Source: a virus (Duplodnaviria > Caudoviricetes). From it: a stretch of 64,000 nucleotides of DNA. The position numbers were made by a program, and so were the translations under genes. The stretch lies in IMG/VR virus record IMGVR_UViG_3300008954_000001; one strand, given 5' to 3'. Numbering within the stretch: position 1 is the first letter of the stretch; every line of letters starts with the position of its first letter. The notes beneath the pieces were generated by a model. It was not told where the DNA came from. It saw only the letters and a list, made by a program, of their open reading frames with translations, and did no database searches. Shown one piece after another: positions 11,560-31,678 of this stretch.

Positions 11560-11569
11560 GATAACCTCC

Positions 11570-12390: not shown

Positions 12391-13602
12391 TTAGTTGCCG
12401 AAAACATCCGAGACATCAGGAGCCACCGCCCAGAGCTTCGAGAGATCGTTGACCTCTGAAGTTGCCTGTTTGGTAACCGTACCAAGAGACTTGGCACCCT
12501 TACTGGCCTTGCGAGCCTTGGGCTTCAAGTTGGCCTTTTTAGCCGAAGCCTGCTTCACAGCCGCTTCCTTGCCACCCTCGTCGTCACCTTCGTCGGCATC
12601 GGCATCGTCGTCACCTTCGTCGGCATCGTCGTCACCTTCATCCGCATCCTCATCGTCTGCGGTCTTGCCACCGAAAAGCTGTGCAAGAAGATCATCGTTG
12701 GCTTCGATCTGATCGCCAAGACCCATAGGATCTTCATCAGCAACCATCTCAAGGCCAATCTCTCCACCCATGTCGTCCATCGGAGCACCCATCGGAGCAC
12801 CGTCGTCTTCCAAGAGAGGAGCCTCTTCTTCAAGAGCCTCGTCAAGAGCGTCGGCTTCGGGAGCCAGCATTTCAGCCAACATCGCCTCAACTTCGTCATC
12901 ACCAGCTTCCAAGCCTTCGGGGGCTTCAGCTTCCATACCACAAGCCACAGGCTCGTCCTCTTCAGCGAAAAGGGTCGCTTCGGGTTCTGGCTCTGGCTCG
13001 CCTTCTTCGGCCAACATAGCGGCAAGCAGTTCCTCGGCTACCATATCAGCAGCGTCGGCTTCCTTGCCCCCATAACCAAGTTCAGGGTCGTTCTGAGCAC
13101 GGCTGTAGGCTTCCTTGTCATCCTCATCACCTTCATCATCGGCCAAAAAAGCGGCAGAAAGACGATCCATGGTGGCGTTGATGGCATCACGGGTCAGGTC
13201 CATAAAGTCTACGGCCTGATCTTCCACAGTCTCCGCAGTAGCGGCCTTACCTAAAAGGGCCTGTGCAATACGGATACACTTGGCAGCCTTACGCTCGGCA
13301 GCTTTACGCTGCATAGCGGCCTTCTTCTCGGAAGGTGCGGCACCCTTGGCATCAGCCTTCGCTGCGGGGTGATCGGGATCCCAGCCATACGAGGCGGGGG
13401 CCGGTCCCTGTGCGTAGGGGCCAGGTGCAACATCTTCAGCGAAGTCACTCGGCTCAGAGCCAGTACCGTTGCCGTCATTATCAATCAGATAATCATCGAC
13501 TTCGGGATCGGCCTTATGAGCAGGGTGCTCAGGCTCCCAGCCATAGGAGGCTGGAGGTTGTGCTGCATTACGTTGAGTCATTCGGATTCGGGATTTTGCC
13601 AT
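12391..13602 (-). CDS. Putative capsid scaffold protein (very acidic)
   Basis: 403 aa, D/E/A-rich with DEGDDDA repeats and a basic C-terminal stretch. Sits between the prohead protease and the decoration/MCP genes; AAGGAGG RBS. Confidence 0.65.
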   Translation of the reverse strand: MAKSRIRMTQRNAAQPPASYGWEPEHPAHKADPEVDDYLIDNDGNGTGSEPSDFAEDVAPGPYAQGPAPASYGWDPDHPAAKADAKGAAPSEKKAAMQRKAAERKAAKCIRIAQALLGKAATAETVEDQAVDFMDLTRDAINATMDRLSAAFLADDEGDEDDKEAYSRAQNDPELGYGGKEADAADMVAEELLAAMLAEEGEPEPEPEATLFAEEDEPVACGMEAEAPEGLEAGDDEVEAMLAEMLAPEADALDEALEEEAPLLEDDGAPMGAPMDDMGGEIGLEMVADEDPMGLGDQIEANDDLLAQLFGGKTADDEDADEGDDDADEGDDDADADEGDDEGGKEAAVKQASAKKANLKPKARKASKGAKSLGTVTKQATSEVNDLSKLWAVAPDVSDVFGN

Positions 13603-13630
13603 GGTAAAGTCCTCCTTGTAGGCGTTTTTG

Positions 13631-15019
13631 TTAATCCGTGTGCGAGATGAGCTTGCCCAGACGGACTAACGCCTTGGCTTCTGTCAAAGAGGGCTTACGT
13701 CCAAGTGCTCTCGTACATGCACTTAGATACCCAGTTAAATTGTCGTACTTCTTTGTTGAACCGAGTTTTAAGGCGGCTCGATAGATTTCCACAGGAAACA
13801 TGATTTTGTGATGGTTGTTATAGGTGGCTACCCGGTTGATAAGATCAGCAGGTTTCGTGGAAGTGTCTAAAATCGCTTGTAGTCCAATAAGATACGTCTG
13901 TTTATCTGCGCCACGGGCTTCCCGCTGAAGCGTATCGTTCGGGGCCATTGAAGAGTCGCCGTCCCCTTCGGGGGCACCCTCCAAGTCCTTTTCAATACGC
14001 TGACGAGCTTTGGAAAGAATCTTTCCAACAATCTTATCTTCCAGTTCTTGGAGTGGAGAAGCATCTTCCTCCCCACCCACCTCATCTGGAACATCAGGAT
14101 CATCCCAACCAGCGAAAACGAGTGAGGAGGCTGCGGCTTTCGCCAAGCCCCCATCGGCCCATTCTTTCGGGAGGGAAGATAATACTTCTTGAGCTTGCTT
14201 CTTCGCAGAATCGCTCATCTCCAACGGGGAGACAATATTTCGCATAACCGCACCCGCAAATGCGGGAGTTGCTACCCAACTGGCTTCGATGAAGGTCACT
14301 CCCCCTGTGGGATCAAGGGTTTGATGTCCACAGAGTTCAGCAATCCGATGTTGGCGGCCTTGATCATCAAAAAAGGTATTCCCCTTTTCGTATTTGATAT
14401 GACCACACATTTCGGTTTCATCGGCGGCAACATTTCCGCATTTTGTACATACGGTAAAGTCCACCGAACAGCCCATCGACATAGCTGCCATTCTGCCATT
14501 CTCAATCGCCTTTACTAAATCAGTGTGTTTGCGATTGGTGGCAATCAGAATGTCGATGTAAACGCTGTCCCCAATATCACGAGCAACCGCATCAATGATC
14601 CTGCCTTTCGACAGGTTTTCAATCTGAACATGCTCAACGAAGTTATGCGCCCCAATGAAAGTCTTGTAGGACTTCATTAGAACCTCACGGCTCCAAGCAT
14701 CCAGATTATTATTGATGAACTTATCGCAATCAGGAACGATCCTATAATCCGTATAGTTACGGACCACTTGTTGACCATCTTCTTGAGAAGACCCGACCTT
14801 TACTCCGGGGACATCTTCAACATCCACCGAGCAAACAATCGTCGCATGGGTCAAAAGGTGATCTTTGGGATCAAAGCTCGACCCAAGAAGCTCCGCCGCT
14901 CGTGCGGAAACCTTCGTAGCAAGTTCTGTGTCCTGTGCCGCTGTGCGAATCTTCTGCCAACTCTTCGGAGAGAGTTGTGGAGATACTACTTTCGCCTTCG
15001 CATACTTTAGAAAAGCCAT
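13631..15019 (-). CDS. Prohead (capsid maturation) protease with Cys-rich insert
   Basis: NFVEH (candidate His), MSMGC (candidate Ser) then CTKCGN...CGH, and FIEASWVATPAF. This pattern fits HK97/assemblin-fold prohead proteases; gene lies between portal and MCP. Confidence 0.75.
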   Translation of the reverse strand: MAFLKYAKAKVVSPQLSPKSWQKIRTAAQDTELATKVSARAAELLGSSFDPKDHLLTHATIVCSVDVEDVPGVKVGSSQEDGQQVVRNYTDYRIVPDCDKFINNNLDAWSREVLMKSYKTFIGAHNFVEHVQIENLSKGRIIDAVARDIGDSVYIDILIATNRKHTDLVKAIENGRMAAMSMGCSVDFTVCTKCGNVAADETEMCGHIKYEKGNTFFDDQGRQHRIAELCGHQTLDPTGGVTFIEASWVATPAFAGAVMRNIVSPLEMSDSAKKQAQEVLSSLPKEWADGGLAKAAASSLVFAGWDDPDVPDEVGGEEDASPLQELEDKIVGKILSKARQRIEKDLEGAPEGDGDSSMAPNDTLQREARGADKQTYLIGLQAILDTSTKPADLINRVATYNNHHKIMFPVEIYRAALKLGSTKKYDNLTGYLSACTRALGRKPSLTEAKALVRLGKLISHTD

Positions 15020-15020
15020 A

Positions 15021-15524
15021 CTATTCGCCCCCGTGCATGTGAATGTCCAAGTTCTTGATCAAGAACATGCAATTAGGACATGCGTATAGGTGCTCACTGG
15101 CACCTTCCCTACGCTTATAGATTGCTTTCTTCAAGCCACCCTCTTTGCATCGAGGACACCCGTAAACGCCCGAATCACACTCACTTTTCGTAGCGTGATA
15201 CTGGCGATCTTTGGTTTTCCAATACAAAGCAACCCTCTCTGGAGAGGCTGCGGCTTTTTTGGCGGGAACAGTACCTGCTCCGCCAGGAACAGAGTTGGTC
15301 TTCGGAGGTGCGAGCCAGATATCAGGGTTAGTCCGTTGCAGATCCTCAACAGGATACCGTGTGGCACCCCACGCAGTCTGCACATCAGCCATACCAATAG
15401 CGGGGTAGAGAGCCACAATGGTCCCTACGACATCCAAGCCATGTCCGAAAGGGACTACATAATCCCCTACGGCAAACTCAGTAGCCCGCTCTTGATAATG
15501 GGTTTGTCCGCTGGCCTGCTTCAC
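15021..15524 (-). CDS. Head-module protein with C-terminal zinc ribbon
   Basis: N-terminal SH3-like FAVGDYVVPF...GTIVALYP and C-terminal CPRC...CPNC. Coupled to neighbours by 1-8-nt gaps. Confidence 0.65.
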   Translation of the reverse strand: MKQASGQTHYQERATEFAVGDYVVPFGHGLDVVGTIVALYPAIGMADVQTAWGATRYPVEDLQRTNPDIWLAPPKTNSVPGGAGTVPAKKAAASPERVALYWKTKDRQYHATKSECDSGVYGCPRCKEGGLKKAIYKRREGASEHLYACPNCMFLIKNLDIHMHGGE

Positions 15525-15532
15525 GGGAACTC

Positions 15533-16114
15533 CTAAAGGGCATAACCGTGAGCGAAAGAGGCTTCCTTGCCACCTTCATCAGCGTCCTCATCATCCCCAT
15601 CGTCGCCTTCGTCAGCGTCTTCGTCGCCTTCGTCAGCGTCTTCGTCGTCACCAGCCAATCGGAGGAGGCTATTAGCAAGGTTGACCAAAGTTGCCTTCTT
15701 GTCGGCATCTTCTTCTTCCTCGTCATCAGCGTCCTTCTCGTCCTCATCCTCATCGGATGCCTTCAAGAGTTCAGCGACTTTTGCGGCGATCTCCTTTAGG
15801 GCTGCTTTGCCAAGACCACCACTCTCGACCATATTTCCAAGCTCATAAAGCTCATCCTGATGGGTCTTAGTGGCCATATAAGGCTCATCCGACTCGTGCT
15901 GAGTATCCACTTCCTGATTGAATTCCTTCTGAATGGAGTCAGACTCCTCATTGGAACGCTTCTCAACGAAGTCGGAAAGCAGATCGCATCGGTATGCGAA
16001 GTCCTTCGCAACATTGGTTGGAATACCAAGTGCTTTGTGGTCTGCCTCAAAGAGTTGGGCCAGACGGTCCAGATCGGCGGTAATAGCTTGTGCGGCTTCT
16101 TTTGTTAGGGCCAT
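15533..16114 (-). CDS. Acidic head-module protein (scaffold/internal protein-like)
   Basis: AGGAGG RBS. Acidic DEDADEG repeats ending in GGKEA, similar to the scaffold gene. Confidence 0.7.
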   Translation of the reverse strand: MALTKEAAQAITADLDRLAQLFEADHKALGIPTNVAKDFAYRCDLLSDFVEKRSNEESDSIQKEFNQEVDTQHESDEPYMATKTHQDELYELGNMVESGGLGKAALKEIAAKVAELLKASDEDEDEKDADDEEEEDADKKATLVNLANSLLRLAGDDEDADEGDEDADEGDDGDDEDADEGGKEASFAHGYAL

Positions 16115-16249
16115 GATGTATCCTCCTAAAAATTAGTTGTTCCCTAAAGGTCTACGCAGGAGAATACCCCTGCGAAAGATGGCTCACCTTTCACATGGGT
16201 AGCCCTCAATAAAAGGGCGGTGATATAGGAAAGCCATTGAACCGAGACT

Positions 16250-19200
16250 TCATTTATTTTCTTTCCGCCTTCCCCCGAATGGAGGGGGCGGGGGCGGAAG
16301 CGTCTTTTGTGACAATGCTTCGGCGTTGCCTGTGTCGGCGTGTTCCCGAACTTTATCCGCCAAAAGAAATAGGTCATCTGACAATTTCTCTTGGTCTTGC
16401 TTTTTTTCAGCGAAAATCGAGAGGACGGTGGCGGAAATACTTTTCCGAAGTGTCCCCCCAATGTCCTCCGGTGGCTCTTCTTCGTTGAGCAAATTGTCGT
16501 GAGCCTCTTTAATCAGACCTTTACACGCCTCTAAGTATGCGAAATCGCCCCCATCTTCCTCTTGTAAGCCTATTTCAGCGAGCAGGGGGGAGTACACTGT
16601 GATGCTATCCAACGCCATTGCCATCGCCCAATCTCGTAACGTCCCTCTTTCTTCTGGGTCATGTCCCAAAGGAACTCGGCCCGCCATGATCCCGGACGGG
16701 GTGGCCGAATCGAAGAAATCTTGAAACTGCTCGTCTGGAACTTCTTCCATGACTGCAAAAAAGACCTCACGACTCTCTTGGGTATGCCACTCTTGTAATG
16801 GGGTACATAAGGCGGCGTGGCCGTCCTCTGTTTCTGCCATCTTCCGAACAAACCGTTTGGTTTCTTTACTCGGAGACACCCCACCGGGGGATTCATGTCC
16901 TTTAAGGATCGCCGCTAAATGGTGACCCTCAATTCTGGCTTCAATCTCAGCGACTCGCTTTGACCTCTCAGGTAAAGTATCGGCCTCTGCTTCTAACGCC
17001 ATTACAAGCACTTGGCGGTCGTCCCCAGAATACTTCCGAGAATCTTCTATGGTTGAGGAAACCTGAGCGAAGCGAGCATCTTTTGTGAGTTCTGACTTAT
17101 CTTTAGGGTCTGAAAGGTCTTTAGCTGGGTTAAAGTAGGTTTTCTTGGCATATTCCGCACGGGCAAGGGCCTCCCCTATAAAAGCTGCGGGGGAACCCTC
17201 ATCCTCAAAAAACCTCTCTGCCGCATACTCCCCACTCAAAGCTGCCCGTGCATCGATGAGCTTCATAGGGTTTTGCTTCAACCCTTCGGTTTCAGCTTCA
17301 AAAGCGGCCTCGAAAGCTCCAAAGTCAAACGCTTCCGACAAGATTGCGTTTTCCTCCAACGCCTCCACCAAGTCTGGTAGCAAAGCCTCTAATCGAGAAG
17401 CCAACTCTTCACGAGACGCTAATTCTTCCTCAACGTGTTGTTTGTTTTTGACCCTTTGGGTTTCAATGACCTGTTCAGGAAATGTTTGTAAGAGGTCTAA
17501 ACCCTCTTCGGTAGACGGGTCTAAAGACACCTCATCTTTTGTTCCGTCCACATGATCAACCGTGATTGTGTATTTCCCATCAACGGGACCGGACACAGAC
17601 ACATCTGGCCTTGGAAAGTCTGTTTCGGGGTCATCAAACGCCTCTAAATCCAAAAGCCCTTTAAGCCCTTCTGGGATCGACTCTTCCGAATCGACCTTAG
17701 CTACCTCTGGCCCGTCCCCGATTTCTTCTTCTCCACCCCCGCCTTCATCGTCATCTTCTCCGGGGTCTTCGGCCAACCATGCTTCGGCTTCTTCTCGTGT
17801 TGAAAAGTGTTCGGTCTTATCCCCTTTAGTGGCTTTGAAGCCTTCGTCATCCCCCAACTCTTCAATCCCGTCAGCAGTCAGCCACCGTTGAGCAATTCGC
17901 TTATAGTTCATGCTCAAATCGTCATCGCCTTCAGCCCCAAGATCCTCAACGTCCGAATCTTCCGCATCCACACGCTCTTTTCGTAAGTCTTTGCGTGGGG
18001 GCTTCTTCTTCGGAGAGGGTCGCACAAGGCGGCCCGCTTCTTCGTCTTCTTTCTCAGCGAGAGTTTTTGTCGCTACCCTATGAAAGCGAACGGCGTTGAC
18101 CGCAGCGGATTCGTTGGTGAAGCGTTTAGGGGTGTTTGAATCTCCGGGGGAAGCCCACCACTCCTTACCGATTTGCCAAACAAATCCTTGGGGGATCATT
18201 CCTCCAATGTCATGAGAGCCTTTCGTAACGTCAGCAACGCCCCAATCGTGGACAGCCTTCACCGTTGTCGCTCTCGACAAGAGGTTCATCAACCATCGTT
18301 TCAAACCACCCATTTTCAGTGTTTCTTCATGAGGACACGGATACGAGCGATCTACAACACGCTCTATATTAGCCTGTCGATAAACACCTAAAAGAGCAGT
18401 GGGGTCGAGTTCCTTCCGAATTGAGCGAAGGGCTTGCGCTATCCATTGGGGGTCGGACTCCTCCAACCATGCCCGCTGAAGCAATCGAATACGATCCGCC
18501 ATCTGCGATAAATCTGTTTGGTTTGTTTCCCAAACCTCGTTGATTTTATCGAGCGTAACGGCCTCTTCTAAAAAGCCTTCGATAGTCAAAAAATGCTTCG
18601 CTATACAATCTGGACAGCGTTTGCGGGGATGAAAGAGGTGATCCTCCAATAAAACGCATTGTTTGACCACTTCTCGAAGGTTGAACCACGGCGACATAAT
18701 CGGAAGCAAACTGGCTAACCGCAACTTGTCTACTGAACGGCGAATCTCACTTTTCAACTGATTTGGGGATTTCAAAAGCTCCGGGTTCTCTAAAAGAACC
18801 AAGCGAGAAAGCTCCTGTACTCTTGGGAAAAAAGACTTCAAATCCTTTTTCTCAATGCCCTTCTCTTTCGCCAACATTGGCATGAAGCTCTTATCTTTGA
18901 TGGCATTACCGGGATTCTTCAAAGCCGAAACAAGATGGTCTTGCTCCTCACGGGTCATCTCAAACGCAATATCAGCAACCCGCTTACGGCCCGCCGCATC
19001 AAGAAATCCGAGATCGTGGCGAACGGGCAGGCCGAGGTCGGTCAACGTAAAGAAAAACTGAACTGGCAATTTCGCAGCCCTCCCTTTCATGGTGGCGGCA
19101 AACATCTTGTCCTTTTGAAGCATCACCTTCAGCGGCTCAATCAACCCCAAACGGTCAAGTTGGGCCAATGTTTGTTTCCACGTATTCTCTTCCAATAGCT

Positions 19201-20026
19201 TGAATAACTCCTGGGCCACACGAGAGGGGCTTACTTTCAGGAGGGCCATCCGCTTACGGCGGATTGAAGCTACGGTATCTGGTGGTATCTTCAGGCCATA
19301 TTTGACCAAGAACTTGATTGCTCGAAGCATTCGAGTCGGGTCATCTTGAAAAGTCGTGTCAGGGTCAAGGGGGCAACGTGCTTCACCTGCCTTCAAATCC
19401 TCCAAGCCGCAACCCGTCATATCAATGATCTCGGCTTTATCTGGACCCTTCGCTAAATCCGATAGCCGCCACATCAACGTGTTGAAGGTGAAGTCCCTCC
19501 GCATGATATCTTCTTTGATCCCAGACCATTCAACAGAGGGTTTGTACCCCCCGCCGGAATCGTCCGAATAAGTCTCTGACCGAGCGTTAACGATCTCAAT
19601 GGCAGCATCGCCCTCGGCACTAAACTCACTGAGGTCCACACCGTCCACAACCCACGAACTTTTCACTACAATCTTGGCAACTCCGTAGTTGTCCGTGATC
19701 AACTCCGTAGAGGCTGGAATCATGCGCTCTAACCGCTTGGCGAGCCAAGCCGAGTCTTTACCCAAGTGTTTTGAGTCTATGACCATATCCACATCTTTAA
19801 TGGGTTGGTCGATTACGAAGTTTCGGACAGCCCCGCCCACCACATACACATGCTTTCCCACATCAGGACCAAGACGGCCCACAGCCTCTGCCATCCACCG
19901 CATTAGAGCGGTCGAGTGTTGGCTGGACACAGATTTCTTGTGGAAGGCTGAGACAACCCTTTGAACTGTGTCTTTATGTTGTGTGGTAAGGGTCACAAAA
20001 GCATCCTTCATCGGTCGGTAATACAC
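16250..20026 (-). CDS. 1258-aa multidomain protein: N-terminal class II (CCA-adding/poly(A)-polymerase family) nucleotidyltransferase fused to further domains and an acidic C-terminal region
   Basis: VYVVGGAVRN...DVD (motif A with DxD), ARSETY...P-V loop, EDIMRRDFTFN (motif B), DDPTRMLRAIKF (motif D). An alternative start is ATG 20011 (MKDAF). Confidence 0.85.
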   Translation of the reverse strand: MYYRPMKDAFVTLTTQHKDTVQRVVSAFHKKSVSSQHSTALMRWMAEAVGRLGPDVGKHVYVVGGAVRNFVIDQPIKDVDMVIDSKHLGKDSAWLAKRLERMIPASTELITDNYGVAKIVVKSSWVVDGVDLSEFSAEGDAAIEIVNARSETYSDDSGGGYKPSVEWSGIKEDIMRRDFTFNTLMWRLSDLAKGPDKAEIIDMTGCGLEDLKAGEARCPLDPDTTFQDDPTRMLRAIKFLVKYGLKIPPDTVASIRRKRMALLKVSPSRVAQELFKLLEENTWKQTLAQLDRLGLIEPLKVMLQKDKMFAATMKGRAAKLPVQFFFTLTDLGLPVRHDLGFLDAAGRKRVADIAFEMTREEQDHLVSALKNPGNAIKDKSFMPMLAKEKGIEKKDLKSFFPRVQELSRLVLLENPELLKSPNQLKSEIRRSVDKLRLASLLPIMSPWFNLREVVKQCVLLEDHLFHPRKRCPDCIAKHFLTIEGFLEEAVTLDKINEVWETNQTDLSQMADRIRLLQRAWLEESDPQWIAQALRSIRKELDPTALLGVYRQANIERVVDRSYPCPHEETLKMGGLKRWLMNLLSRATTVKAVHDWGVADVTKGSHDIGGMIPQGFVWQIGKEWWASPGDSNTPKRFTNESAAVNAVRFHRVATKTLAEKEDEEAGRLVRPSPKKKPPRKDLRKERVDAEDSDVEDLGAEGDDDLSMNYKRIAQRWLTADGIEELGDDEGFKATKGDKTEHFSTREEAEAWLAEDPGEDDDEGGGGEEEIGDGPEVAKVDSEESIPEGLKGLLDLEAFDDPETDFPRPDVSVSGPVDGKYTITVDHVDGTKDEVSLDPSTEEGLDLLQTFPEQVIETQRVKNKQHVEEELASREELASRLEALLPDLVEALEENAILSEAFDFGAFEAAFEAETEGLKQNPMKLIDARAALSGEYAAERFFEDEGSPAAFIGEALARAEYAKKTYFNPAKDLSDPKDKSELTKDARFAQVSSTIEDSRKYSGDDRQVLVMALEAEADTLPERSKRVAEIEARIEGHHLAAILKGHESPGGVSPSKETKRFVRKMAETEDGHAALCTPLQEWHTQESREVFFAVMEEVPDEQFQDFFDSATPSGIMAGRVPLGHDPEERGTLRDWAMAMALDSITVYSPLLAEIGLQEEDGGDFAYLEACKGLIKEAHDNLLNEEEPPEDIGGTLRKSISATVLSIFAEKKQDQEKLSDDLFLLADKVREHADTGNAEALSQKTLPPPPPPFGGRRKENK

Positions 20027-20069
20027 CTACCGTTGAAAGATGATAGGCAGACTATGGAGGACACCTGTA

Positions 20070-21761
20070 TTAGAAGCGGCTACCGCCATCGTCCTTCTTC
20101 TCGTACTCCAAGCCCATGCTCTCAGCGACCTTCTGAGCCACATCAGAGCTTTCGGCCAAAGCCCGACCAACCTCACTGTACACTGACCGCATAACCTCAT
20201 TGAAAGAGGAGTCGTTCAAAGTGAATAGATCCCGTTGTAGTTTGAGCTTGGTTGTCTCTGGGTCGATATTTAGCAACTCCAAGATAATGTCGATATCGAG
20301 ACTTCCCTTTTGATAAAGGTTGAACAAGGCATCGAAAGTATCTGAGTTGTCCCGCAAGGCCAATCGAGTGAACGAGAGTTTAGGGTAAATCACATTCTCC
20401 AACCCGTCCTCATCCGTCTCAACGAACCCCATGCGAGCACACATCGGCTTGAAAACGTACTCTTCAATGAAATCTTGGAGGAGTTCCCGAAGCAACATAT
20501 AGCGAGTGTTGATCACCTCAAGGTTGATCCTATCCCCCGAATACGAAGACTCACCTGAAAGCAAAGACTCCGTTACCCCAAGGCCCGCATATAGCTGGCG
20601 GTCAGTCAGGTCATACTCAGTGGTCAAATCCAACAGGCGTTGATCCGCCCCCATTTCTTCCCAACGAATCTCGAAGTTGGCGATGATTGAGTAGTCGGGG
20701 TCTTGTAGAGATAGGTCCACCTGATCCCGTAACTCCTCAACATCCTGAATATCCATACCTTCGGCATAAATCACTCGAATGGGGGTCATGTGGCGGCTGG
20801 CGATAGAAGTCTGAGCCTGTCGGAGCTTGTCCCTAAACACCAATGTTCGGATACAGCGTTCGAGGATCGAGTGTCCACGGGCCTCGTATTGGCTCTTTTT
20901 GCGGGACATGTAGTAAACGAACGACCCCGCTTCGGGGTCTGTGTTCAAGGAAATGTTCTGGCCGCCTCGAATTGAATTGACCACATCGGAGGGCATCGAA
21001 TCCACAACACGCTTGGCGTTGGAGTCGCCCATATCCGCTTGGTTGATCAGATCCTTGGTCTTCGAGTCAGGGATAAGCTCAACAATCCTTTCATCCGTAA
21101 AAGGAAACGCTTCCATGTGGACTTGTTCGGGAGGCAATATACGAATGGCAGTCCAACCATTGTAGTTCTCCTTTAGCCAAGTAACGGCTCGATCATCTGC
21201 GTCTGGTCGCTCGTGCCATTGGACATCCACCTCTTGAGTCTCGTCATTCAAAACACGGACTTCTTCTTGTCGAATATCTTGGGGCATGTCCGGGGAGGTG
21301 TCTTCAACAAAGATAAACACCTCTCCAATCAAATGATAGTCATGGACAATCTCAATCAGCCGATGCAGCAGCCCCGTGCTCTTTGACCATTTCTGGCAAA
21401 AGGCCAACGCTTTCTCCGCTAATTGGTGATCTTCCGCTTTCGGGATATTCAACCGAAGTTTGCTCAGGGGAAGCTCTGTGTGTAGGTCAATCGCTTGACC
21501 TACAAAAGGGTCGGCCCGATAAAAGAAGCGATAGTAGTTACGCTGTTCATCAAGACTTTGAGGAAGCTCCAAGAAGTCTGTCGAAAGCTCAGGGCTATAA
21601 AAGTTGCCCCCCGCCCCAGTCATGCTTCCACCCACTTGTGGGAAAGAAGCCATCTTGATCCCGCCCGTTGCGATTTTTCTCGGCTTCCCTGTCGTGACTT
21701 TCGCACGATTTGGAACCTTGGCTACCTCTTTGCCTTCTTGTTCCTCGATCTTTCTACTCAT
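20070..21761 (-). CDS. Portal protein
   Basis: 563 aa. FFYRADPFVGQAIDLHTELPL, EIVHDYHLIGEVF, HSILERCIRTLVFRDKLRQAQ and LGVTESLLSGE segments are portal-like. Located between TerL and the protease. Confidence 0.75.
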   Translation of the reverse strand: MSRKIEEQEGKEVAKVPNRAKVTTGKPRKIATGGIKMASFPQVGGSMTGAGGNFYSPELSTDFLELPQSLDEQRNYYRFFYRADPFVGQAIDLHTELPLSKLRLNIPKAEDHQLAEKALAFCQKWSKSTGLLHRLIEIVHDYHLIGEVFIFVEDTSPDMPQDIRQEEVRVLNDETQEVDVQWHERPDADDRAVTWLKENYNGWTAIRILPPEQVHMEAFPFTDERIVELIPDSKTKDLINQADMGDSNAKRVVDSMPSDVVNSIRGGQNISLNTDPEAGSFVYYMSRKKSQYEARGHSILERCIRTLVFRDKLRQAQTSIASRHMTPIRVIYAEGMDIQDVEELRDQVDLSLQDPDYSIIANFEIRWEEMGADQRLLDLTTEYDLTDRQLYAGLGVTESLLSGESSYSGDRINLEVINTRYMLLRELLQDFIEEYVFKPMCARMGFVETDEDGLENVIYPKLSFTRLALRDNSDTFDALFNLYQKGSLDIDIILELLNIDPETTKLKLQRDLFTLNDSSFNEVMRSVYSEVGRALAESSDVAQKVAESMGLEYEKKDDGGSRF

Positions 21762-22054: not shown

Positions 22055-22063
22055 TACCCTCGG

Positions 22064-22339: not shown

Positions 22340-22340
22340 C

Positions 22341-24161: not shown

Positions 24162-24162
24162 C

Positions 24163-24843: not shown

Positions 24844-24857
24844 TCCCTCTCCACAGG

Positions 24858-25325
24858 TTAGAAGTCTGGCCCCGTAATAGCCGGGGAGCCTTCAGACATT
24901 ACCCCTGTGGTGGGATCAAGCGTGAGGTTTTCTGTGTAATCGACCAACTCCAAGGTAATATCTTGGGGGCCGTTTGGACCACTAATGGTCACATCAGCAT
25001 CTACCGCCACTGCGCTGAACCCTGCGATACCGTCATTAAGGGTAGCTCCAATCGCATCAGCGATATTTGAAGCGGTATCGTTCACATTACCGGCAATCTC
25101 CCAATGAGTGCCTTCAACCAGTTCAATGTCCCCTAATGTAATTCGGGAACCTTTTGATGAAATGGCGTTCGTTGCGATTACCGTAAGGGTAGCTTCACAG
25201 GCGGTGGGGTTTCCGGTCAAATTTGCATTGATAACCTTCCCCCCACCGAGATCAATGTGTTGATAGGTCACTGTCCCCAATGCGGGGGAGATAATTTCAA
25301 AGCGACCTTTTGTTTTGCGTGTCAT
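24858..25325 (-). CDS. Putative structural protein
   Basis: 155 aa, beta-rich and G/T/A/N-rich (EGTHWEIAGNVNDTASNIADAI), inside the head module. Confidence 0.55.
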   Translation of the reverse strand: MTRKTKGRFEIISPALGTVTYQHIDLGGGKVINANLTGNPTACEATLTVIATNAISSKGSRITLGDIELVEGTHWEIAGNVNDTASNIADAIGATLNDGIAGFSAVAVDADVTISGPNGPQDITLELVDYTENLTLDPTTGVMSEGSPAITGPDF

Positions 25326-25912
25326 TCGATGTCTCCTATGGGTTCACCCACCAGACTAAAATCGTAGGGCGGTTTTTCAATTCCTGGGCGGCCTTCGGAG
25401 TCTGTCATTCGTTGTTGTAACAGGTAAATAAAGACCTCATGTTGATTTGCTAATGTCATTAGATAATCATCCATACCAAGAGACAGGCTATCCATGCCTT
25501 TTAGTAGGTCATAGGCAGTGCGAATCGTGACTTGTAGGTCTTCTTCCCCCGCCAAAGCTCTCAAAAGCGGGCAATCCACTTCTTTGAACCTTGAGATATG
25601 TGCTTGCGCTTTATCCATTTGGGAGAAAGGGCTGACCGAATCGGGGCCAAATAGCCCAACACACTTTTCGGCAAGCTGGTCAATCTCTCCCGTCATCTGG
25701 TTATACATGCGCTCAAACAACTGGTGATCCCCATAGCTGGATTGGCCTTTTGCTGACCAATGCGCTGACCAGTGCATCCACCGCAACCCTCGAAGCGTTG
25801 CGAGAGTTACCGTAAGAATAGTCTGTGCTGCATGAACGTGCGTAGGGACACCTACCAAATAGGCTTTCTTTAGGTGTCGTGACGCAACTCTGGCAGCAAG
25901 TCTACTCATCAT
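25322..25912 (-). CDS. Dps/ferritin-like four-helix-bundle protein with basic N-terminal leader
   Basis: HWSAHW...GDHQLFERMY...IDQLAEK matches the Dps/ferritin-like HW, HxxFExxY and DxxAE pattern. Start ATG 25912 or 25909, overlapping the upstream stop. Confidence 0.7.
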   Translation of the reverse strand: MMSRLAARVASRHLKKAYLVGVPTHVHAAQTILTVTLATLRGLRWMHWSAHWSAKGQSSYGDHQLFERMYNQMTGEIDQLAEKCVGLFGPDSVSPFSQMDKAQAHISRFKEVDCPLLRALAGEEDLQVTIRTAYDLLKGMDSLSLGMDDYLMTLANQHEVFIYLLQQRMTDSEGRPGIEKPPYDFSLVGEPIGDIE

Positions 25913-28139
25913 CTTCCCCAAGGCTCATCCCACCAAAGAACACCCCCGCCAACTCTTCGTGTTCGGGAGTGTCGTTGAAATCGAACCCTGTCATGGAATC
26001 GTTCGACAGTTGAAACTCGGATGGGTCGTAGCCCGAAAACAAAGAAGCCGTGATTTCTGCATCACTGGCTCTGGCAAGCCGAAGAGCCTCTGCTTGATAC
26101 TTCTTCGGGTTCTCAACCGGAGCTTCCTCTACCAGAATCTTATTGTACTTCTGACAAACAGAAAGCCCGTCAGGGAGTTTGTTTGCGAACTTACAAGTCC
26201 CACATCGAGGCATACACAAAGCGAACTTCAAGCCGTTCGTTCTGTGCCTGTCTGCGCCCCTGTCACAGCCTTTGGTTCCTTCGGGAGTGGCGTAGGCTTC
26301 GGTGTCTACATAAACTTGCCCTGAAAGGCCCTCGTGGGCCTCACGAATCTGAATAAGCTCATGACCAGCCGCCTCTACCAAACGCTTTGAAAAGCGAGCG
26401 GAAAGAAGGTCGTCGAAATCCTTGCCCAACACGCCCTCAGACATCTGAATCCGAGACCACTTAACGAGCTTCCGAACATCTACGCTACTGGTTTTGGTGG
26501 TTCGACTCTCTGGGATCGCCTCTGTGTAAATGGCTTCCGAATACTCTCGAACAGGTGTAGCGGTAATCTCGCCACGCTTCGAGTTGTTCAAAGCCACCAC
26601 CGCAGATGCAGCGTGTACTAACTCGCCCGCATTACGCTTGGACTTGAGTAGCCTATCCGCTTGTCGTTGTGTGATTTGAGCCTTATCCGCCAAAGCCTGA
26701 ACATGCTCTTTGGCCTGATCCAACTTGCTTTTCTTCAAGTCAGCCGTGACCTTCTTGGCCCACTCATGCTTGAGCTTACGAGCCTGACCTACATCCTTCG
26801 TATGGATGCCACTCGGCTTGTAGTCTTTACCCGCTGTCGGAAAGGCCGCTGCGGTAGCAAAGCGAAGCATCTCTTTAGGACTCGCCCCACTATTGATGAT
26901 CTCTTTAGCGGCCTTTTTCGTCAGTGAACCATTCCGCACCAACTCAAGGACATGCTTCTGAGCACGGGTCTTCAACACCGTGTCCAGCGTATCGCCCGTA
27001 ATCTTAGCTTGCGCTTGCTTCTTAGAAGCCGAGAACTTCTCTTTTGCCTCGGCCATACTGACCGACTCTACGGGCGTTTTGTGTGTCGTAAAGGCTTCTC
27101 TGCGCCTCGGCTTCCTCGTAGGCTTCGTAGTAAAGGCGGTTTTAAGGGCTGTGCGAGGGTCCGAACCAGCGACCTTGATGCCCAAGGCTTTGAGTCGTGG
27201 GGCATAAACCCTCAACGCTTCCTTCCAAGGAATATCAAGAACAACTCGCTTACCGAGGTAGTTCTCAAAAGCGGCCATCTTCGTGTTTGGCTCTGCCAAA
27301 ATATAGGCGGCGGAGGCACACTTCGTCTTAATGAGAGAGTCCCATTTTCCGTTGTGCATCCCAGGAAAGGCTGACGCTCGAATAAACACGTTTCCAGCTA
27401 AACCGTGCTCCTCTGAAATCAGGCCAGCCAAAAGCCGTGCCGTGGTGTCGGGAGTTTCAAGCTCTTCGGCGGCTTCTTTCAGCAACGCCTCCATCGAATA
27501 ACCACAAGCGGATCGCCGCATAGCTTTTTGCATGGCGGCTTTTACATTGTCGTAGCCTGGAAGCCCTGATGTTTGGCCGGGATCACGAACTTCAGCTTGA
27601 TACCGCTCAACCTCTTTGTTCCGATTAGGAATCAGTTCCAACCCGTTTGTTCGAGTCTCTACCCACGCTTGTTGGAGAGCAGCCTGAGCCTTATCCACAG
27701 GATTGACAGGAAGCCTGTCTTCATCTTGTTCGAGCGAGGGATCAAGCCAATCGAGATTGGCGAGGGAGGATTTCTTCCCAAGCTGCGAGTTCTCTTCCTC
27801 TGAAAGAACAGCACCAGAAGCCAGCAGTCCCCAAGGATCGCCCATATGTTTATGGAGGGGGCCGCTGCGCTGCTTCACTTGGACGGCTGGCCCTGTGTAG
27901 TTGCTGGGGGCGGAAGGGGGTCCAGCTTCAGCATCTTTTTCATCGGGGCTTTCGGGAAGGATGCCTTCAGGAAGCTCGGCCATGCCGTAGGCTTCAGGTA
28001 ACACGGCCCCGTCTTCAACGCCGTCTCCGTAATCCATATCAAAATCAAAGCCGTCTAAGCCGTAATTGAAACCGGAAGTTGGGACATGGCCGCCATCGGG
28101 GAGATGAGACTCGCTCTGCTTCGCTTTTTTCTTACTCAT
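25902..28139 (-). CDS. Large head-module protein (745 aa) with Cys-rich C-terminal domain
   Basis: Acidic N-terminus, K/A-rich helical middle, C-terminal CDRG...CMPRCGTCKF...CQKY. Coupled to both neighbours by overlaps. Confidence 0.75.
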   Translation of the reverse strand: MSKKKAKQSESHLPDGGHVPTSGFNYGLDGFDFDMDYGDGVEDGAVLPEAYGMAELPEGILPESPDEKDAEAGPPSAPSNYTGPAVQVKQRSGPLHKHMGDPWGLLASGAVLSEEENSQLGKKSSLANLDWLDPSLEQDEDRLPVNPVDKAQAALQQAWVETRTNGLELIPNRNKEVERYQAEVRDPGQTSGLPGYDNVKAAMQKAMRRSACGYSMEALLKEAAEELETPDTTARLLAGLISEEHGLAGNVFIRASAFPGMHNGKWDSLIKTKCASAAYILAEPNTKMAAFENYLGKRVVLDIPWKEALRVYAPRLKALGIKVAGSDPRTALKTAFTTKPTRKPRRREAFTTHKTPVESVSMAEAKEKFSASKKQAQAKITGDTLDTVLKTRAQKHVLELVRNGSLTKKAAKEIINSGASPKEMLRFATAAAFPTAGKDYKPSGIHTKDVGQARKLKHEWAKKVTADLKKSKLDQAKEHVQALADKAQITQRQADRLLKSKRNAGELVHAASAVVALNNSKRGEITATPVREYSEAIYTEAIPESRTTKTSSVDVRKLVKWSRIQMSEGVLGKDFDDLLSARFSKRLVEAAGHELIQIREAHEGLSGQVYVDTEAYATPEGTKGCDRGADRHRTNGLKFALCMPRCGTCKFANKLPDGLSVCQKYNKILVEEAPVENPKKYQAEALRLARASDAEITASLFSGYDPSEFQLSNDSMTGFDFNDTPEHEELAGVFFGGMSLGEDDE

Positions 28140-28762
28140 TTGGTTCTCCCATTAGTTCGGCCAAGGACTCGATTGATGGCGGCGGTTTTCCTGTGGGCTT
28201 GCCTACCTGAAAATTGATCTTCAACAACCTCATCGGCGGCGGCCTCTGGATTCTCTTTGATCTCCTCCACATCTTCCATGATGTCTTTGACCTCATCCCT
28301 CTGTCGATCCACGGTAGGGTTATCCATAGACCAATGGGGAGCATTGATTTCGTCGTACAAGGTGTCCGTAAGGGAAGAAAGGGCTTCGGAGCAGTTCATA
28401 AACTGCCGTCGCATCGCACGGATTTCTTGAATATAGCCCTTACCGCCAAGATTGCCGTCTGGTGAGATCAAGGCTGATTTGAGTTTCGCAAACTCATGAT
28501 AAGAGCTTTGTGTGTGGCCCAAGGCCATAAGACATGAACGAAGGCATTTCGCCAAAGGCTTTAGTCGAGCGGGTGAAAACTCAAACTCAACATTCAAATC
28601 TCGCTCGGACGGCCCTGTATCGGCGTAGGCCCAGTTTTTCTCATCTGAACCACGGTCCTTGATGAAACGAACTTCACCCGCTGTCTTGGACATAGCGGCT
28701 GTTTTTGAGCGCAGATACCGTGTCACTACACGACTCGCCATCCTATTGCGTTTATCGGCCAT
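28136..28762 (-). CDS. Head-module hypothetical protein (208 aa)
   Basis: GGAGG RBS. The N-terminus carries RVVTRYLRSKTAAMSKTA. Confidence 0.75.
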   Translation of the reverse strand: MADKRNRMASRVVTRYLRSKTAAMSKTAGEVRFIKDRGSDEKNWAYADTGPSERDLNVEFEFSPARLKPLAKCLRSCLMALGHTQSSYHEFAKLKSALISPDGNLGGKGYIQEIRAMRRQFMNCSEALSSLTDTLYDEINAPHWSMDNPTVDRQRDEVKDIMEDVEEIKENPEAAADEVVEDQFSGRQAHRKTAAINRVLGRTNGRTK

Positions 28763-28830
28763 ACGGCAAACCTCCGTTTCTACAATCGACTATAGATAGG
28801 GACTTTACCGTTGGACGGGCAGGGCCAGAT

Positions 28831-29373
28831 TTATGTTTGAAGCGGACCATCAGATTCCTCGAACAGACGTTCAATGACCCAAGCATCACCGTCTTGCTGG
28901 AGGGACCACATATCGTCCGTAGATTTATGAACAAGCTCGCCCTCAACTTGGTTGCCAGCAACCAATAAGAACTCACTAAGATCCCCAAGGCTGGCGACTC
29001 GCATCTTATCTACTCGAAGATGCCGCCGATCCACGGGCATTACATCATGGTTACCGTCCCACCGTACAAAAACCATCTCATCATGGCTGGTCTTATTACC
29101 AAGCGACGTATGAACTCGGACAACCGTGCCAATCGTGCCTGCTTCGGGAGGGTCGGGGTATGAAAGAACAGAGCCGACATTCACGATGAAGGCGACCCGT
29201 GTACCTTCCGCTACGGGAAGAGGGATCGCATGGGCCGCACGGCCCTTGTCGGTCAAGGCTTGCATGGAGGACGTTCGAGCGTCACCAAGCTGTTTACCCT
29301 TCAAATGAGAGTCGATAGCCTCGTTTACTCTGGCAACATAGTTACCTGTCAGTTCGTCCCAAAATTCGCTCAT
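28831..29373 (-). CDS. Hypothetical protein with SH3/KOW-like beta domain
   Basis: 180 aa; GTRVAF...GTIGTVVRV...VFVRWDG. GGAGG RBS. Confidence 0.65.
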   Translation of the reverse strand: MSEFWDELTGNYVARVNEAIDSHLKGKQLGDARTSSMQALTDKGRAAHAIPLPVAEGTRVAFIVNVGSVLSYPDPPEAGTIGTVVRVHTSLGNKTSHDEMVFVRWDGNHDVMPVDRRHLRVDKMRVASLGDLSEFLLVAGNQVEGELVHKSTDDMWSLQQDGDAWVIERLFEESDGPLQT

Positions 29374-29388
29374 TTTCTGCCTCCAAAA

Positions 29389-29742
29389 TCACTCATGGAA
29401 ATCCACACCAATCTTTCTCTGATGAGCATCCCAACGATCCATCATCTTCAAAAGATCCCGCTGGAAAGCCGCAAGCACCCCATGGACCGCCTTCCTCATT
29501 GATTTGGGATAGCCCGTGTTACCCGTAATCGAGTACAAAATGGCCTCATGCAGTCCTGTCCCATCATAGTAACGAGACTTTTTCATCAAATCGTCCAAAG
29601 GGTTGTCTACAAGTTGTTCAAGCCCCTTGGCCCACTCGTCTGTGTCATACGCCTCTGACCCCTTCTTCACTAATGGAAGAAGGTCTTTCCGCAATTCTGG
29701 ATGCTCATAAGCCAGCTTAATGATCTGATTTCTTAAGCTCAT
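29389..29742 (-). CDS. Hypothetical protein (117 aa) with N-terminal LRNQIIKLAYEHPELRKDLLPLVK helix motif
   Basis: The likely start is ATG 29742, in an ATGA overlap with the upstream stop at 29739. The ORF-track extension to 29856 overlaps the previous gene. Confidence 0.65.
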   Translation of the reverse strand: MSLRNQIIKLAYEHPELRKDLLPLVKKGSEAYDTDEWAKGLEQLVDNPLDDLMKKSRYYDGTGLHEAILYSITGNTGYPKSMRKAVHGVLAAFQRDLLKMMDRWDAHQRKIGVDFHE

Positions 29743-30917
29743 AGTGTGCTCCGTACAACTGACCAGCCCACCGTACCCGTTTGAACCCCATCGAAAGTGA
29801 TTGTAAAGCCTTCGCTTGTCTTCGCTCCAATGGCGGGTGCGGCGTTCATAGAACACTCAGTACAAACGAAGTATTGATTATCAGGTTGGGAGACAGCAAA
29901 GGTCACGGTTTCAGCAGCACTCGCAGCAAAGGCGATTTCTCCTGTGGAACCACTCTCTGAAAGCGTCCCGTCACCCGCCAGATCCCCGTGAGACGATCCC
30001 ACGGAAACAGCAGTTACGGTGTTGTTCAGGGTCAAATCCCCAATCATGCAGCCGATTACCCGTGCCGACCTATCTCCACCAATAGTTACATCCCCAACAT
30101 TCGGGCATCCGGCAATAACGACAGAATTCCCACCAGTTAGGTTGATCAGAACATCTCCCACTTCACCACATTCCTCAATACGGTGGCTGGTGGCCGCAAT
30201 ATCGGACACCGCCGAAGCGGTCGTATAAGCAATCTGAATGTCAGAAAGTCGCTGGATGCCTTTGAGAAGGACACTGGCACACTGGTCAATCTCAATCAAA
30301 GTCGTTGCCACAGGGTTCCAATCGCCCCCCACCGCTACAATGTTGCCCACAGTGGAAGCTCGCAAAGGCCGAGAACCTACTCCCGACGCTTGCAGTTCAC
30401 AGTTTTGAATACGAATACGGTCCTCTCCGATTGTCGATCCCGCCCCGCCGATTACTCGAACGCACGAGGAAGAGTCCTCAGATGACTGAACTCGTAGATC
30501 CACCAAATCTAAAGTTTTGGGGGTGGTGGAAACACCAGCCTGGATGGTGAACGTGTCGCCCGCTGCTGCGGAAACTACAGGTCTACCGATCCCAACAACG
30601 CTGATCCCATCCTTATCAATAGTGATGTTTTCGCTGTAAGTTCCAGAGGTTACAAGGATTGTGTGGGGATTTGTTGCGCTGGAAGTGGCCGAAACCGCAT
30701 CCACAGCGTCTTGAATTGTGCTGTATTGAGCATTGTCCCCAACCACCAAGACAGTCGCATTGGCGGTAACTCCCGCAAGGCGGGCCAGCCCGATCCCGTC
30801 CGTAACCTTCGCATCGACAAACTCAAGGTCGCCATCGGTTGAACGAGAAATCGTCAGGGTGTCGCCACTGGAAGCCTCTATTTGGATTGCGTCTAACTGG
30901 ATTGGGTCTTGCGCCAT
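29739..30917 (-). CDS. Right-handed beta-helix (pectin-lyase-like) protein, fibre/spike-like
   Basis: YSTIQDAVDA...TILVTSGTYSENITI is the usual N-cap of pectin-lyase/pectinesterase-type beta helices, followed by I/V/G/D-rich rungs. Confidence 0.65.
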   Translation of the reverse strand: MAQDPIQLDAIQIEASSGDTLTISRSTDGDLEFVDAKVTDGIGLARLAGVTANATVLVVGDNAQYSTIQDAVDAVSATSSATNPHTILVTSGTYSENITIDKDGISVVGIGRPVVSAAAGDTFTIQAGVSTTPKTLDLVDLRVQSSEDSSSCVRVIGGAGSTIGEDRIRIQNCELQASGVGSRPLRASTVGNIVAVGGDWNPVATTLIEIDQCASVLLKGIQRLSDIQIAYTTASAVSDIAATSHRIEECGEVGDVLINLTGGNSVVIAGCPNVGDVTIGGDRSARVIGCMIGDLTLNNTVTAVSVGSSHGDLAGDGTLSESGSTGEIAFAASAAETVTFAVSQPDNQYFVCTECSMNAAPAIGAKTSEGFTITFDGVQTGTVGWSVVRSTL

Positions 30918-30928
30918 GATCTCAACTC

Positions 30929-31357
30929 CTACACGAACACGTCATAGCCAACGGAACCTGTGAAGGTTGCGCCAAGCTCGACAGTGAAGCCCGTAATGGT
31001 CTTGTTTGTGACCCGGATAGGGACAAACTCGCCAACCGAAACATGGACTCGATAGGTTGCGGCGTTTAGGGCCGATGAAAAGACAACATCTTTAGATGCC
31101 TCAGTGTCGAATTCAAGCGTCCCGCTTACAGATGAAGATGCCATAAGATCCTCCAACTCAGCCATGGCGGTCTGAATGTCGTCCGTCACTTCTTGTGGAA
31201 GCTCGATGTAAGCGTCAGCAATCGACCCTTGGGGCGTAATAATATTACGGACGGAAACGACCCCTGAAATGTCTTGAACAACAGTGAATGTGTACTCCTC
31301 ACTTAAAGCCGTGATGGAGCGATACGTGGATTCTGTTTTGTACCTTGTCAGAGCCAT
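30929..31357 (-). CDS. Putative structural protein; C-terminal domain paralogous to that of 29739-30917
   Basis: 142 aa ending NKTITGFTV...TGSVGYDVFV. Confidence 0.6.
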   Translation of the reverse strand: MALTRYKTESTYRSITALSEEYTFTVVQDISGVVSVRNIITPQGSIADAYIELPQEVTDDIQTAMAELEDLMASSSVSGTLEFDTEASKDVVFSSALNAATYRVHVSVGEFVPIRVTNKTITGFTVELGATFTGSVGYDVFV

Positions 31358-31678
31358 CTACCAGATCCCCGTAGTCAGATACCCTCGGTCGGTGAGCCAC
31401 TTATCGAGCTTCACCAATTCGGAATGATTGGAGGACCAGATCGTAAGGGAACCAGCGTTTTCTTCTTTACCCATACCAAGGTCAGTTATCGGCTCGATCC
31501 CTCGGATACGGGCCTTCCCATCCCTGAAAGATCGCAGCAGATTGTTGATGTTCTTGATGGGCTTAGATGACCCTGCTTCATATACCGTCACACGGTATTC
31601 AGGCGTAGCATGGCTCTGTAGCCATCGCTCGGCTACCTCCTTGGCCATTACTACCCGTTTTTTGCAGGGCTTACTCAT
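31358..31678 (-). CDS. Hypothetical protein (106 aa), first gene of the head module
   Basis: AAGGAGG RBS; carries EVAERWL. Confidence 0.65.
   Translation of the reverse strand: MSKPCKKRVVMAKEVAERWLQSHATPEYRVTVYEAGSSKPIKNINNLLRSFRDGKARIRGIEPITDLGMGKEENAGSLTIWSSNHSELVKLDKWLTDRGYLTTGIW

Follow-up and report, generated by a model that had tools for sequence, protein, structure and literature searches.

Why do otherwise unrelated proteins, encoded in and around the head genes of an uncultured megaphage, carry the same short basic peptide, and why are its head-assembly proteins so rich in Lys/Arg-x-Ala (K/R-x-A) triplets? Both questions are raised by a 64,000-nucleotide stretch of the IMG/VR virus record IMGVR_UViG_3300008954_000001 (Duplodnaviria; Caudoviricetes), hereafter the window, which comprises a head and a replication region with nearly all genes on the minus strand. 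A sequence-only reading of this DNA had proposed that the basic motif is a head-targeting tag and that K/R-x-A is the site of the prohead protease. We find that both motifs exist, are conserved and modular, and are linked to each other statistically and positionally. We propose, with about an even chance of being right, that this clade uses a two-part code in which a docking helix would load proteins into the prohead and K/R-x-Ala would act as the release site of the prohead protease. Capsid entry, the docking partner and cleavage after Ala are the parts of this proposal that we infer from sequence only.

By identity of the major capsid protein, the nearest records are LR745208.1 (uncultured, 485 kb; 85%), Tunturiibacter phage Tunturi_5 (48%) and Bacillus phage G (38%, gp27); the window phage is a megaphage of the phage G-like lineage. 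Its relatives in IMG/VR are contigs of 289–529 kb, and a megablast search of the region against phage records gave no match at the DNA level. Genome-wide counts were made on the complete relative LR745208.1, which has 608 open reading frames (ORFs). Loci of relatives carry L-numbers (L001, L003, L006, L019, L022, L025 and L032–L035).

The basic peptide stands at the N termini of three window proteins of 208, 199 (Dps/ferritin-like) and 106 amino acids (aa):

28697..28741, minus strand: N-terminal tag of the 208-aa protein, M-A-S-R-V-V-T-R-Y-L-R-S-K-T-A (MASRVVTRYLRSKTA), kept in most of the 120 homologues examined
25862..25903, minus strand: N-terminal tag of the Dps/ferritin-like protein, R-L-A-A-R-V-A-S-R-H-L-K-K-A (RLAARVASRHLKKA), followed by K-K-A and Y-L-V-G
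31607..31648, minus strand: N-terminal tag of the 106-aa protein, M-A-K-E-V-A-E-R-W-L-Q-S-H-A (MAKEVAERWLQSHA), kept in the L001 and LR745208.1 orthologues

The peptides quoted in the sequence-only reading all exist, on the minus strand and within a few bases of where it had placed them. Their consensus is [RK]-[VI]-A-x-R-[YWHF]-L, often followed by x-A, in a helix that is often capped by Pro or Asp. The strict pattern of that reading occurs 3 times in the head block, compared with 0.01 in within-protein shuffles, and a looser pattern 9 times compared with 0.6; the count for the rest of the window is 1, compared with 1.3. A weight matrix 16 residues wide finds 13 sites in LR745208.1 (0 in reversed and approximately 1 in shuffled proteins) and 23 sites in 18 further head-centred IMG/VR loci, none of which had been used in building it (0 reversed). 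A profile (A3) for which only 208-aa and Dps-like family tags were used picks up tags on other protein families, with 7, 13 and 9 sites in the genomes of three relatives (289–529 kb) and no site in phage G (497 kb) or Tunturi_5 (309 kb), which served as size-matched negative controls.

Most tagged proteins are mutually unrelated outside the tag (all-against-all BLAST). Those that can be identified include the Dps/ferritin-like protein, a CCA-adding nucleotidyltransferase polyprotein and a 2H phosphoesterase; many more are unknowns. The nonamer of the window's Dps-like tag recurs, identical, on an unrelated 101-aa ORF of L003, and in L025, which belongs to a distant clade, 3–4 consecutive small genes right after the capsid gene start with tags, 2 of them above the matrix threshold and the rest recognized by eye. 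Among 32 distinct tag sites, 14 begin no more than 30 residues from the ORF start, compared with 3.8 expected (p = 5e-6). The tag is thus a conserved, portable and modular peptide, placed mostly at the ends of unrelated proteins, and the claim that dissimilar proteins share it was borne out by shuffling, reversal and independent-family controls. A twin-arginine translocation (Tat) signal, considered as an identity for the basic motif, is ruled out by its single Arg and by the lack of a hydrophobic region behind it.

A second, longer N-terminal module is also shared between proteins, L-R-x-x-[IL]-I-[KR]-L-A-[HY]-x-x-P-x-L-R-x-x-L-L-P-L (window 29662–29742, minus strand). It heads the window ORF 29389–29856 (true start Met39) and eight otherwise different ORFs of LR745208.1 (14562, 20283, 226068, 351465, 351838, 389893, 398171 and 431502), one of which has a tag-like C terminus. 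This module may be another class of address.

The second element, K/R-x-A, is concentrated in four proteins of the head region and its surroundings:

12391..13602, minus strand: acidic scaffold-like protein of 403 aa, between the protease and major capsid genes, with 20 K/R-x-A triplets compared with 6.5 expected
13057–13071, 12658–12672 and 12562–12576, minus strand: G-G-K-[ET]-A sites of the scaffold (GGKEA, GGKTA and GGKEA, respectively)
12457–12513, minus strand: C-terminal R-K-A-S...K-Q-A-T cluster of the scaffold
13631..15019, minus strand: putative prohead protease of 462 aa, in which the catalytic part (to approximately residue 265) is followed by a variable acidic linker and then by a helical domain at the C terminus
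15533..16114, minus strand: acidic 193-aa protein, which ends in G-G-K-E-A (15560–15574) and a short aromatic tail
25902..28139, minus strand: 745-aa protein, the orthologue of which is the most K/R-x-A-enriched ORF of LR745208.1

In the window head block, [KR].A occurs 129 times, compared with 80 ± 7 in shuffles; other spacings of the pair, or its reversed orientation, give 75–92. We also enumerated all 20 × 20 residue pairs at gaps of 0–3. Of 1284 patterns in the window head block, R.A comes 2nd and K.A 4th, but across the remainder of the window they drop to 362nd and 25th, respectively. For LR745208.1, K.A heads the ranking in the head block and is at about place 800 of 1600 in the remaining genome. 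When the 608 ORFs of LR745208.1 are ranked by K/R-x-A excess, the orthologue of the 745-aa protein, the scaffold and the protease take places 1–3, in a genome with an overall count as expected (1369 compared with 1338). Nine scaffold orthologues together hold 174 triplets (68 ± 7 in shuffles) and 48 K/R-x-A-Ser tetrads (4.2 ± 2), with Ser enriched 4.3-fold at what would be P1′. All five close orthologues or paralogues of the 193-aa protein that were examined end with K/R-x-A and a C-terminal tail of 1–10 residues. K/R-x-A is thus specific to head-assembly proteins, and the predicted enrichment of both motifs in the head block over the rest of the window holds. The triplet is also abundant in phage G gp19 (10 compared with 3.4), phage G gp21 and Tunturi_5 gp332; to judge by these sequences, this part of the code probably extends to the cultured relatives (phage G gp19–gp21 and Tunturi_5 gp332). 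The two motifs are also linked to each other: tagged proteins of LR745208.1, with the tag masked, contain more K/R-x-A than untagged ones (Mann–Whitney p = 0.006).

Both patterns were first defined by eye, and Lys, Arg and Ala are common in helical, low-complexity scaffold sequence, so that the motifs might be compositional or post-hoc artefacts. We regard this as very improbable indeed: none of the controls (reversal, shuffling, spacing and orientation) comes up with such counts, the unbiased scan of all pairs singles out K/R-x-A, models from independent families find tags in other families and none in the two negative-control genomes, and the motif is conserved over the 120 homologues examined of the 744 found for the 208-aa protein.

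In the family of this 208-aa protein, tag and triplet are clearly placed relative to each other:

28655..28687, minus strand: invariant K-T-A-G-E-V-R-F-I-K-D of the 208-aa protein, a candidate cleavage point after Ala28
28139..28192, minus strand: C-terminal K-T-A and degenerate tag of the 208-aa protein, to be compared with the C termini of its homologues

The 744 homologues were reduced to the best 120 for tag counts. Most of these carry the N-terminal tag at a variable distance from an invariant K/R-T-A-G-E-V-R-F-I-K-D, and in 59 of the 120 the C terminus consists of an acidic stretch, G-K-T-A and then RVAxRYLxRR. K-T-A is frequently doubled, and stands between tag and conserved core at both ends of the family. 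In an alignment of 69 homologues, A28 to F33, K35 and D36 are invariant. In the AlphaFold model, the tag is a free helix (residues 2–21), and the invariant stretch that follows has a predicted local distance difference test (pLDDT) score below 50; a stretch that is invariant yet predicted to be disordered bears the signature of a linear motif. The fold of the 208-aa protein itself had no match in the PDB at E ≤ 0.001, just generic helical hairpins, and the ESM Atlas gave no usable match.

The Dps-like protein presents a comparable arrangement on a putative ferritin-like core:

25322..25921, minus strand: Dps/ferritin-like candidate cargo protein, 199-aa ORF, with weak matches to PF19174, phrog_3636 and phrog_858

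Its PF19174 match (E = 3.8e-4) falls below the cutoff, and PF00210 or PF19174 is present in its database homologues. Translation probably begins at the MMS, a few codons inside the ORF. Close homologues all start with the tag, as MN[KR]LA[KA]RVAARH..K[RK][AS]Y, whereas distant ferritin-like homologues (P0133–P0139, none a bona fide Dps) lack it and begin straight at the ferritin helices. Cellular Dps has a Lys-rich N-terminal DNA-binding tail. The tag of the Dps-like protein is strongly basic and located where that tail would be, and several other tagged proteins act on nucleic acids; the tag could on these grounds be a basic nucleic-acid-binding tail that tethers proteins to phage DNA. This seems quite improbable, as a protein interface is the better match for the conserved aromatic-Leu pair and for the small residues along one face of the helix, the charge varies (E-V-A-E-R-W-L in the 106-aa protein), and the tag, which the distant ferritin-like homologues lack, is no ancestral feature.

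At its other end, the Dps-like protein has a C-terminal peptide, G-I-E-K-P-P-Y-D-F-S-L-V-G (window 25322–25400, minus strand), that is near-invariant in Dps-like homologues and missing from shorter ferritin-like relatives. It may be another linear motif.

Tags and triplets also occur within proteins, at the joints of a large polyprotein encoded between portal and protease:

16250..20026, minus strand: 1258-aa polyprotein with an N-terminal nucleotidyltransferase of the CCA/poly(A)-polymerase type (PF01743 and PF12627 above cutoff; phrog_2244)
18710..18727, minus strand: K-L-R-L-A-S joint between the CCA-adding nucleotidyltransferase and the Cys/His module, which is separate in relatives
18341..18364, minus strand: degenerate tag E-R-V-V-D-R-S-Y, near the position of the tag in ORF3 of L006
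17873..17905, minus strand: internal tag Y-K-R-I-A-Q-R-W-L-T-A (residues 708–718), flanked by acidic low-complexity sequence

The 1258-aa protein is composed of the nucleotidyltransferase, the Cys/His module and further parts. Orthologues of its internal tag (...NYKRVA...) are found in L019 and L022. L006 has the protein split over several genes, two of which open with a tag of their own: the ORF for the nucleotidyltransferase, and one of 374 aa that has no equivalent in the window. ORF3 of that locus aligns to residues 441–545 of the 1258-aa protein and has a well-formed tag, VRVASRWLSA, near its residue 112; its correspondence to ERVVDRSY was judged from adjacent aligned residues, with no direct alignment of tag to tag. 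The Cys/His module (..LLPIM..) begins a separate ORF in LR745208.1, L033 and L006, and in L022 a different upstream module meets the same Cys/His module through K-K-T-A-A-LLPVM, so that K/R-x-A stands at two independent fusion joints ahead of one module. The L022 orthologue (4075–9372) is a 1765-aa polyprotein made up of an N-terminal segment with 2H-phosphoesterase-like H-x-T motifs (by eye only), two tandem tags, a further region and the Cys/His module.

Every tag starts with [RK]-[VI]-A, which is itself a K/R-x-A triplet and is often followed by Ser, Gly or Thr. Together with the internal tags between polyprotein modules, and with a conserved tag-like segment of the scaffold (C-I-R-I-A-Q-A-L-L-G-K), this would fit an arrangement with no separate docking element, in which the tag is the high-affinity recognition site of the protease and is cut inside (R-V-A, then S/G/T-R-aromatic-L). 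A predicted helix is a poor protease substrate, however, such a cut would take only about ten residues off the N-terminal copies, and the separate K-T-A in disordered linkers is far better conserved than cutting of this kind needs; we consider the arrangement improbable. Conservation of K/R-x-A is seen within disordered linkers and where modules are fused. The claim that K/R-x-A marks domain boundaries was sustained at the 1258-aa fusion joints, the tag–core junctions of the 208-aa protein and the linker of the protease, and the individual triplets listed in its support are all present (RTA and KAA for the protease, three copies of KTA for the 208-aa protein, GGKEA and GGKTA for the scaffold, and GGKEA for the 193-aa protein).

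The protease linker is bounded by a conserved K294-x-A296 (14126–14149) and R366-x-A368 (13916–13924), and the linker sequence between them is unconserved. The protein matches phrog_18299 'head maturation protease' (1e-12) and phrog_2774, its homologues bear the annotation prohead protease in phages of Rhodococcus and Gordonia and in Tunturi phages, and its gene lies between the portal and the scaffold and major capsid genes in an order conserved in relatives. Invariant Ser and His residues in the alignment, candidates for the catalytic centre, include H58, H130 and S181. The proteases of phage G and Tunturi_5, which are tag-less, do not have the C-terminal helical domain. Complex prediction for the full-length protease (alignment A2) and residues 1–60 of the 208-aa protein scored 0.00, which gives no answer either way.

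Several other features of these head proteins deserve mention. The protease has an invariant Cys cluster (C184, C191, C194, C205, C230 and H232, residues ~184–232; window 14400–14470, minus strand) beside an S-M-G-C motif; it looks like an inserted zinc ribbon, which is unusual for prohead proteases. The scaffold N terminus (residues ~15–85; window 13330–13560, minus strand) has a duplicated P-A-S-Y-G-W-[ED]-P-[ED]-H-P-A, which in orthologues reads P-A-x-x-G-[YW]...H-P-A. In some relatives, the terminase (1109 aa) and portal (1122 aa) of L006 (3519–6848 and 7439–10807) and the protease of L032–L035 (870–920 aa) are approximately twice the usual length; their homologous parts are interrupted by large insertions of intein-like look. 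The N terminus of the capsid protein, K-Q-R-I-I-S-E-Y-I-K followed by K-L-A-A-S, was considered as a tag and site and dropped, as the phage G triplet is A-L-A and the tag score is low.

How might the two elements act together? A basic amphipathic helix at the N terminus, at the C terminus or between modules would tie unrelated proteins to a common prohead partner, the likeliest candidates being either the additional C-terminal domain that the protease has or the scaffold/core proteins, which are acidic. The 13631–15019 protease would cut at K/R-x-Ala, with a preference for Ser, Gly or Ala at the next position. Through such cuts the scaffold would be degraded, the protease released from its linker, and the 193-aa and 745-aa proteins trimmed; mature cores would lose their tags, and polyproteins would be divided into individual enzymes. 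More tentatively, and on balance doubtfully, the tag could be a position-independent portable address that, with the release sites, loads a swappable set of enzymes into the capsid, where they would be freed for co-injection with the DNA. With similar reserve, that set could comprise the ferritin-like protein, the tRNA CCA-adding enzyme, 2H phosphoesterases and many unknowns, amounting to an encapsulin-like cargo system in a tailed phage.

A number of observations weigh against docking and release as a joint system. Approximately 3 of the 7 other N-terminal tags of LR745208.1 have K/R-x-A within 20 residues (by eye); in the 106-aa family the tag abuts the folded part and no conserved Ala stands behind it; and the 745-aa protein has many of its conserved triplets in structured-looking regions. 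The identity of the protease is a further point. It had no match in Pfam even at E = 5, Pfam scans of 11 orthologues likewise gave nothing relevant, a PDB profile search returned nothing relevant, and its AlphaFold model (mean pLDDT 49; catalytic part below 50) is too poor for a fold search. The HK97 protease cuts after Lys. As only PHROG families and annotated homologues identify the window protease, an assemblin-like preference for Ala is an analogy. The clade also has no cultured member: a search of 50,697 phage records with the 208-aa protein returned LR745208.1 and no other. Of the proposal that the motifs are a targeting tag and a protease site, what stood is the modular tag and the enrichment and conservation of K/R-x-A in the scaffold, the protease, the 193-aa protein and the 745-aa protein; identification of the protease at the PHROG level and the 106-aa family without its Ala tell against the rest.

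The distribution of tags belongs with these points. Of the 13 tags in LR745208.1, 11 are found beyond the head block, and the relatives of 289 and 529 kb also have most of theirs far from the head module. In complete relatives the head module is thus not the only place of the tag, although its density is 0.19–0.74 per 1000 aa near head genes and 0.07–0.08 elsewhere. The scatter is not decisive, because the cargo genes of T4 and phiKZ are also scattered. It does suit a different arrangement, in which the tag is a docking or oligomerization helix for a hub unrelated to the capsid (the 208-aa protein, or a replication/transcription factory) and K/R-x-A just serves scaffold and protease processing, with no joint system. 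The 208-aa protein is tagged at both ends, as a bivalent adaptor would be, small residues at fixed helix positions suggest tight helix–helix packing, and the tagged enzymes work on nucleic acids. A hub of this kind is nevertheless unlikely, as tags are 2.5–10 times denser near head genes, K-T-A stands between tags and core in the 208-aa family, tagged proteins have an excess of K/R-x-A, and no replication protein in the window has a tag.

Prohead loading and release would have precedents: the capsid-targeting sequence (CTS) of T4 (PMC9958956), the propeptides of SPN3US and phiKZ (PMC10052503) and packaged polyvalent proteins (PMC5512222). The T4 CTS brings foreign proteins into the head and is then clipped off (PMC9958956). 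As with that CTS, which is found on IPII/IPIII and Alt and is removed by the gp21 protease (PMC9958956), a short conserved leader is common to unrelated proteins, adjoins a motif that is also abundant in scaffold/core proteins, and belongs to genes scattered over the genome. There is no likeness in sequence: the T4 leader has approximately ten residues and ends in L/I-x-Glu, whereas the window has a basic R-V-A-x-R-aromatic-L helix and K/R-x-Ala. The tag here also occurs at C termini and between modules, and its function is a prediction from sequence. Proximity of tag and protease-type motif is clear in the 208-aa and Dps-like families and absent in the 106-aa family.

The SPN3US protease cleaves N-terminal propeptides at A-x-E, where P1′ is preferentially Ser, and also trims a C-terminal propeptide off itself (PMC10052503). 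The window resembles phiKZ, 201phi2-1 and SPN3US, in which cutting takes place at A/S/G-x-Glu (PMC10052503), in its many candidate N-terminal propeptides with multiple copies of the motif, in the favoured Ser at P1′ and in a protease with a putative C-terminal propeptide of its own. It differs in protease lineage and in the predicted P1 residue (Ala here, Glu there), and no shared docking helix has been described for those phages. The tag system is, as far as these comparisons of sequence go, an analogue and no homologue of the T4 CTS and the giant-phage propeptides.

The release and maturation sites of herpesvirus assemblin are (V/L/I)-x-Ala followed by Ser. The window shares with assemblin a predicted cut after Ala with Ser next, and a protease linked to a C-terminal domain by a linker that conserved sites bound; P3, however, is Lys or Arg here and not aliphatic, and an assemblin fold of the window protease is unconfirmed. 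Encapsulins, through cargo-loading peptides, and microcompartments, through encapsulation peptides, hold unrelated enzymes in a protein shell by means of a short terminal peptide; encapsulins typically have ferritin-like cargo, and in microcompartments the peptide is an amphipathic helix that a linker connects to the cargo. Unlike encapsulins, the window belongs to a tailed phage with portal and terminase, its peptide has another sequence, and a putative release site accompanies the tag. Phage polyvalent proteins combine several enzymes in one polypeptide; their genes neighbour the head genes, and packaging and processing have been predicted for them (Iyer et al. 2017, PMC5512222). The 1258-aa protein, a multi-module polypeptide beside head genes, resembles these (PMC5512222) and the Dar proteins of P1, and 2H phosphoesterase modules recur; here it would be the prohead protease that does the processing, at K/R-x-Ala joints that the shared tag marks, and not an embedded peptidase domain. 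Our literature searches found no description of the motif pair or of a doubly tagged 208-aa protein.

The genes discussed above lie among the following:

31739–32338: sigma-like factor, the highest-coordinate gene of the described stretch
between the sigma-like factor and the Dps/ferritin-like gene: block of unknown proteins of 106, 142, 392, 180, 208 and 745 aa
22341..24161, minus strand: large terminase (phrog_2)
20070..21761, minus strand: portal protein (phrog_16240)
between the 1258-aa and protease genes, next to the acidic 193-aa protein: 167-aa protein
10690..11559, minus strand: major capsid protein (phrog_2522), with its true start at Met65 of the long ORF 10690–11751

From high to low coordinates, the order is terminase, portal, 1258-aa protein, 193-aa and 167-aa proteins, protease, scaffold-like protein and major capsid protein, with the replication module upstream of the head region, at 32–55 kb. 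Portal, tail-type genes and terminase are all encoded in the window. Just downstream of the capsid gene region, a 2316-aa ORF (1100–8050, minus strand) has immunoglobulin-like and tail-protein-like segments. Within the block of unknowns, the 392-aa protein (29739–30917, minus strand; weak pectinesterase/beta-helix match) and the 142-aa protein (30929–31357, minus strand) have a common C-terminal domain, and the orthologue of one matches the other at 40%. Possible identities for the two are head fibres or decoration proteins. Pfam scans of the small unknown window proteins at E ≤ 1 gave nothing useful.

Relative to the T4 CTS and giant-phage propeptide theme, what appears to be new here is the sequence of the tag, a predicted Ala at P1, and use of the tag at either terminus and between modules. 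If the two-part code is correct, it would be the first maturation and cargo-loading code for the phage G-like megaphage lineage, which has no genetic system. It would explain the giant polyproteins between portal and protease, and would offer a short protein-packaging tag with which capsids could be loaded, whichever end of the protein carries it. It would also predict which unknown megaphage proteins travel in the capsid; among them would be enzymes of RNA repair and of nucleotide-signal degradation, which could weaken the defences of the host as they arrive.

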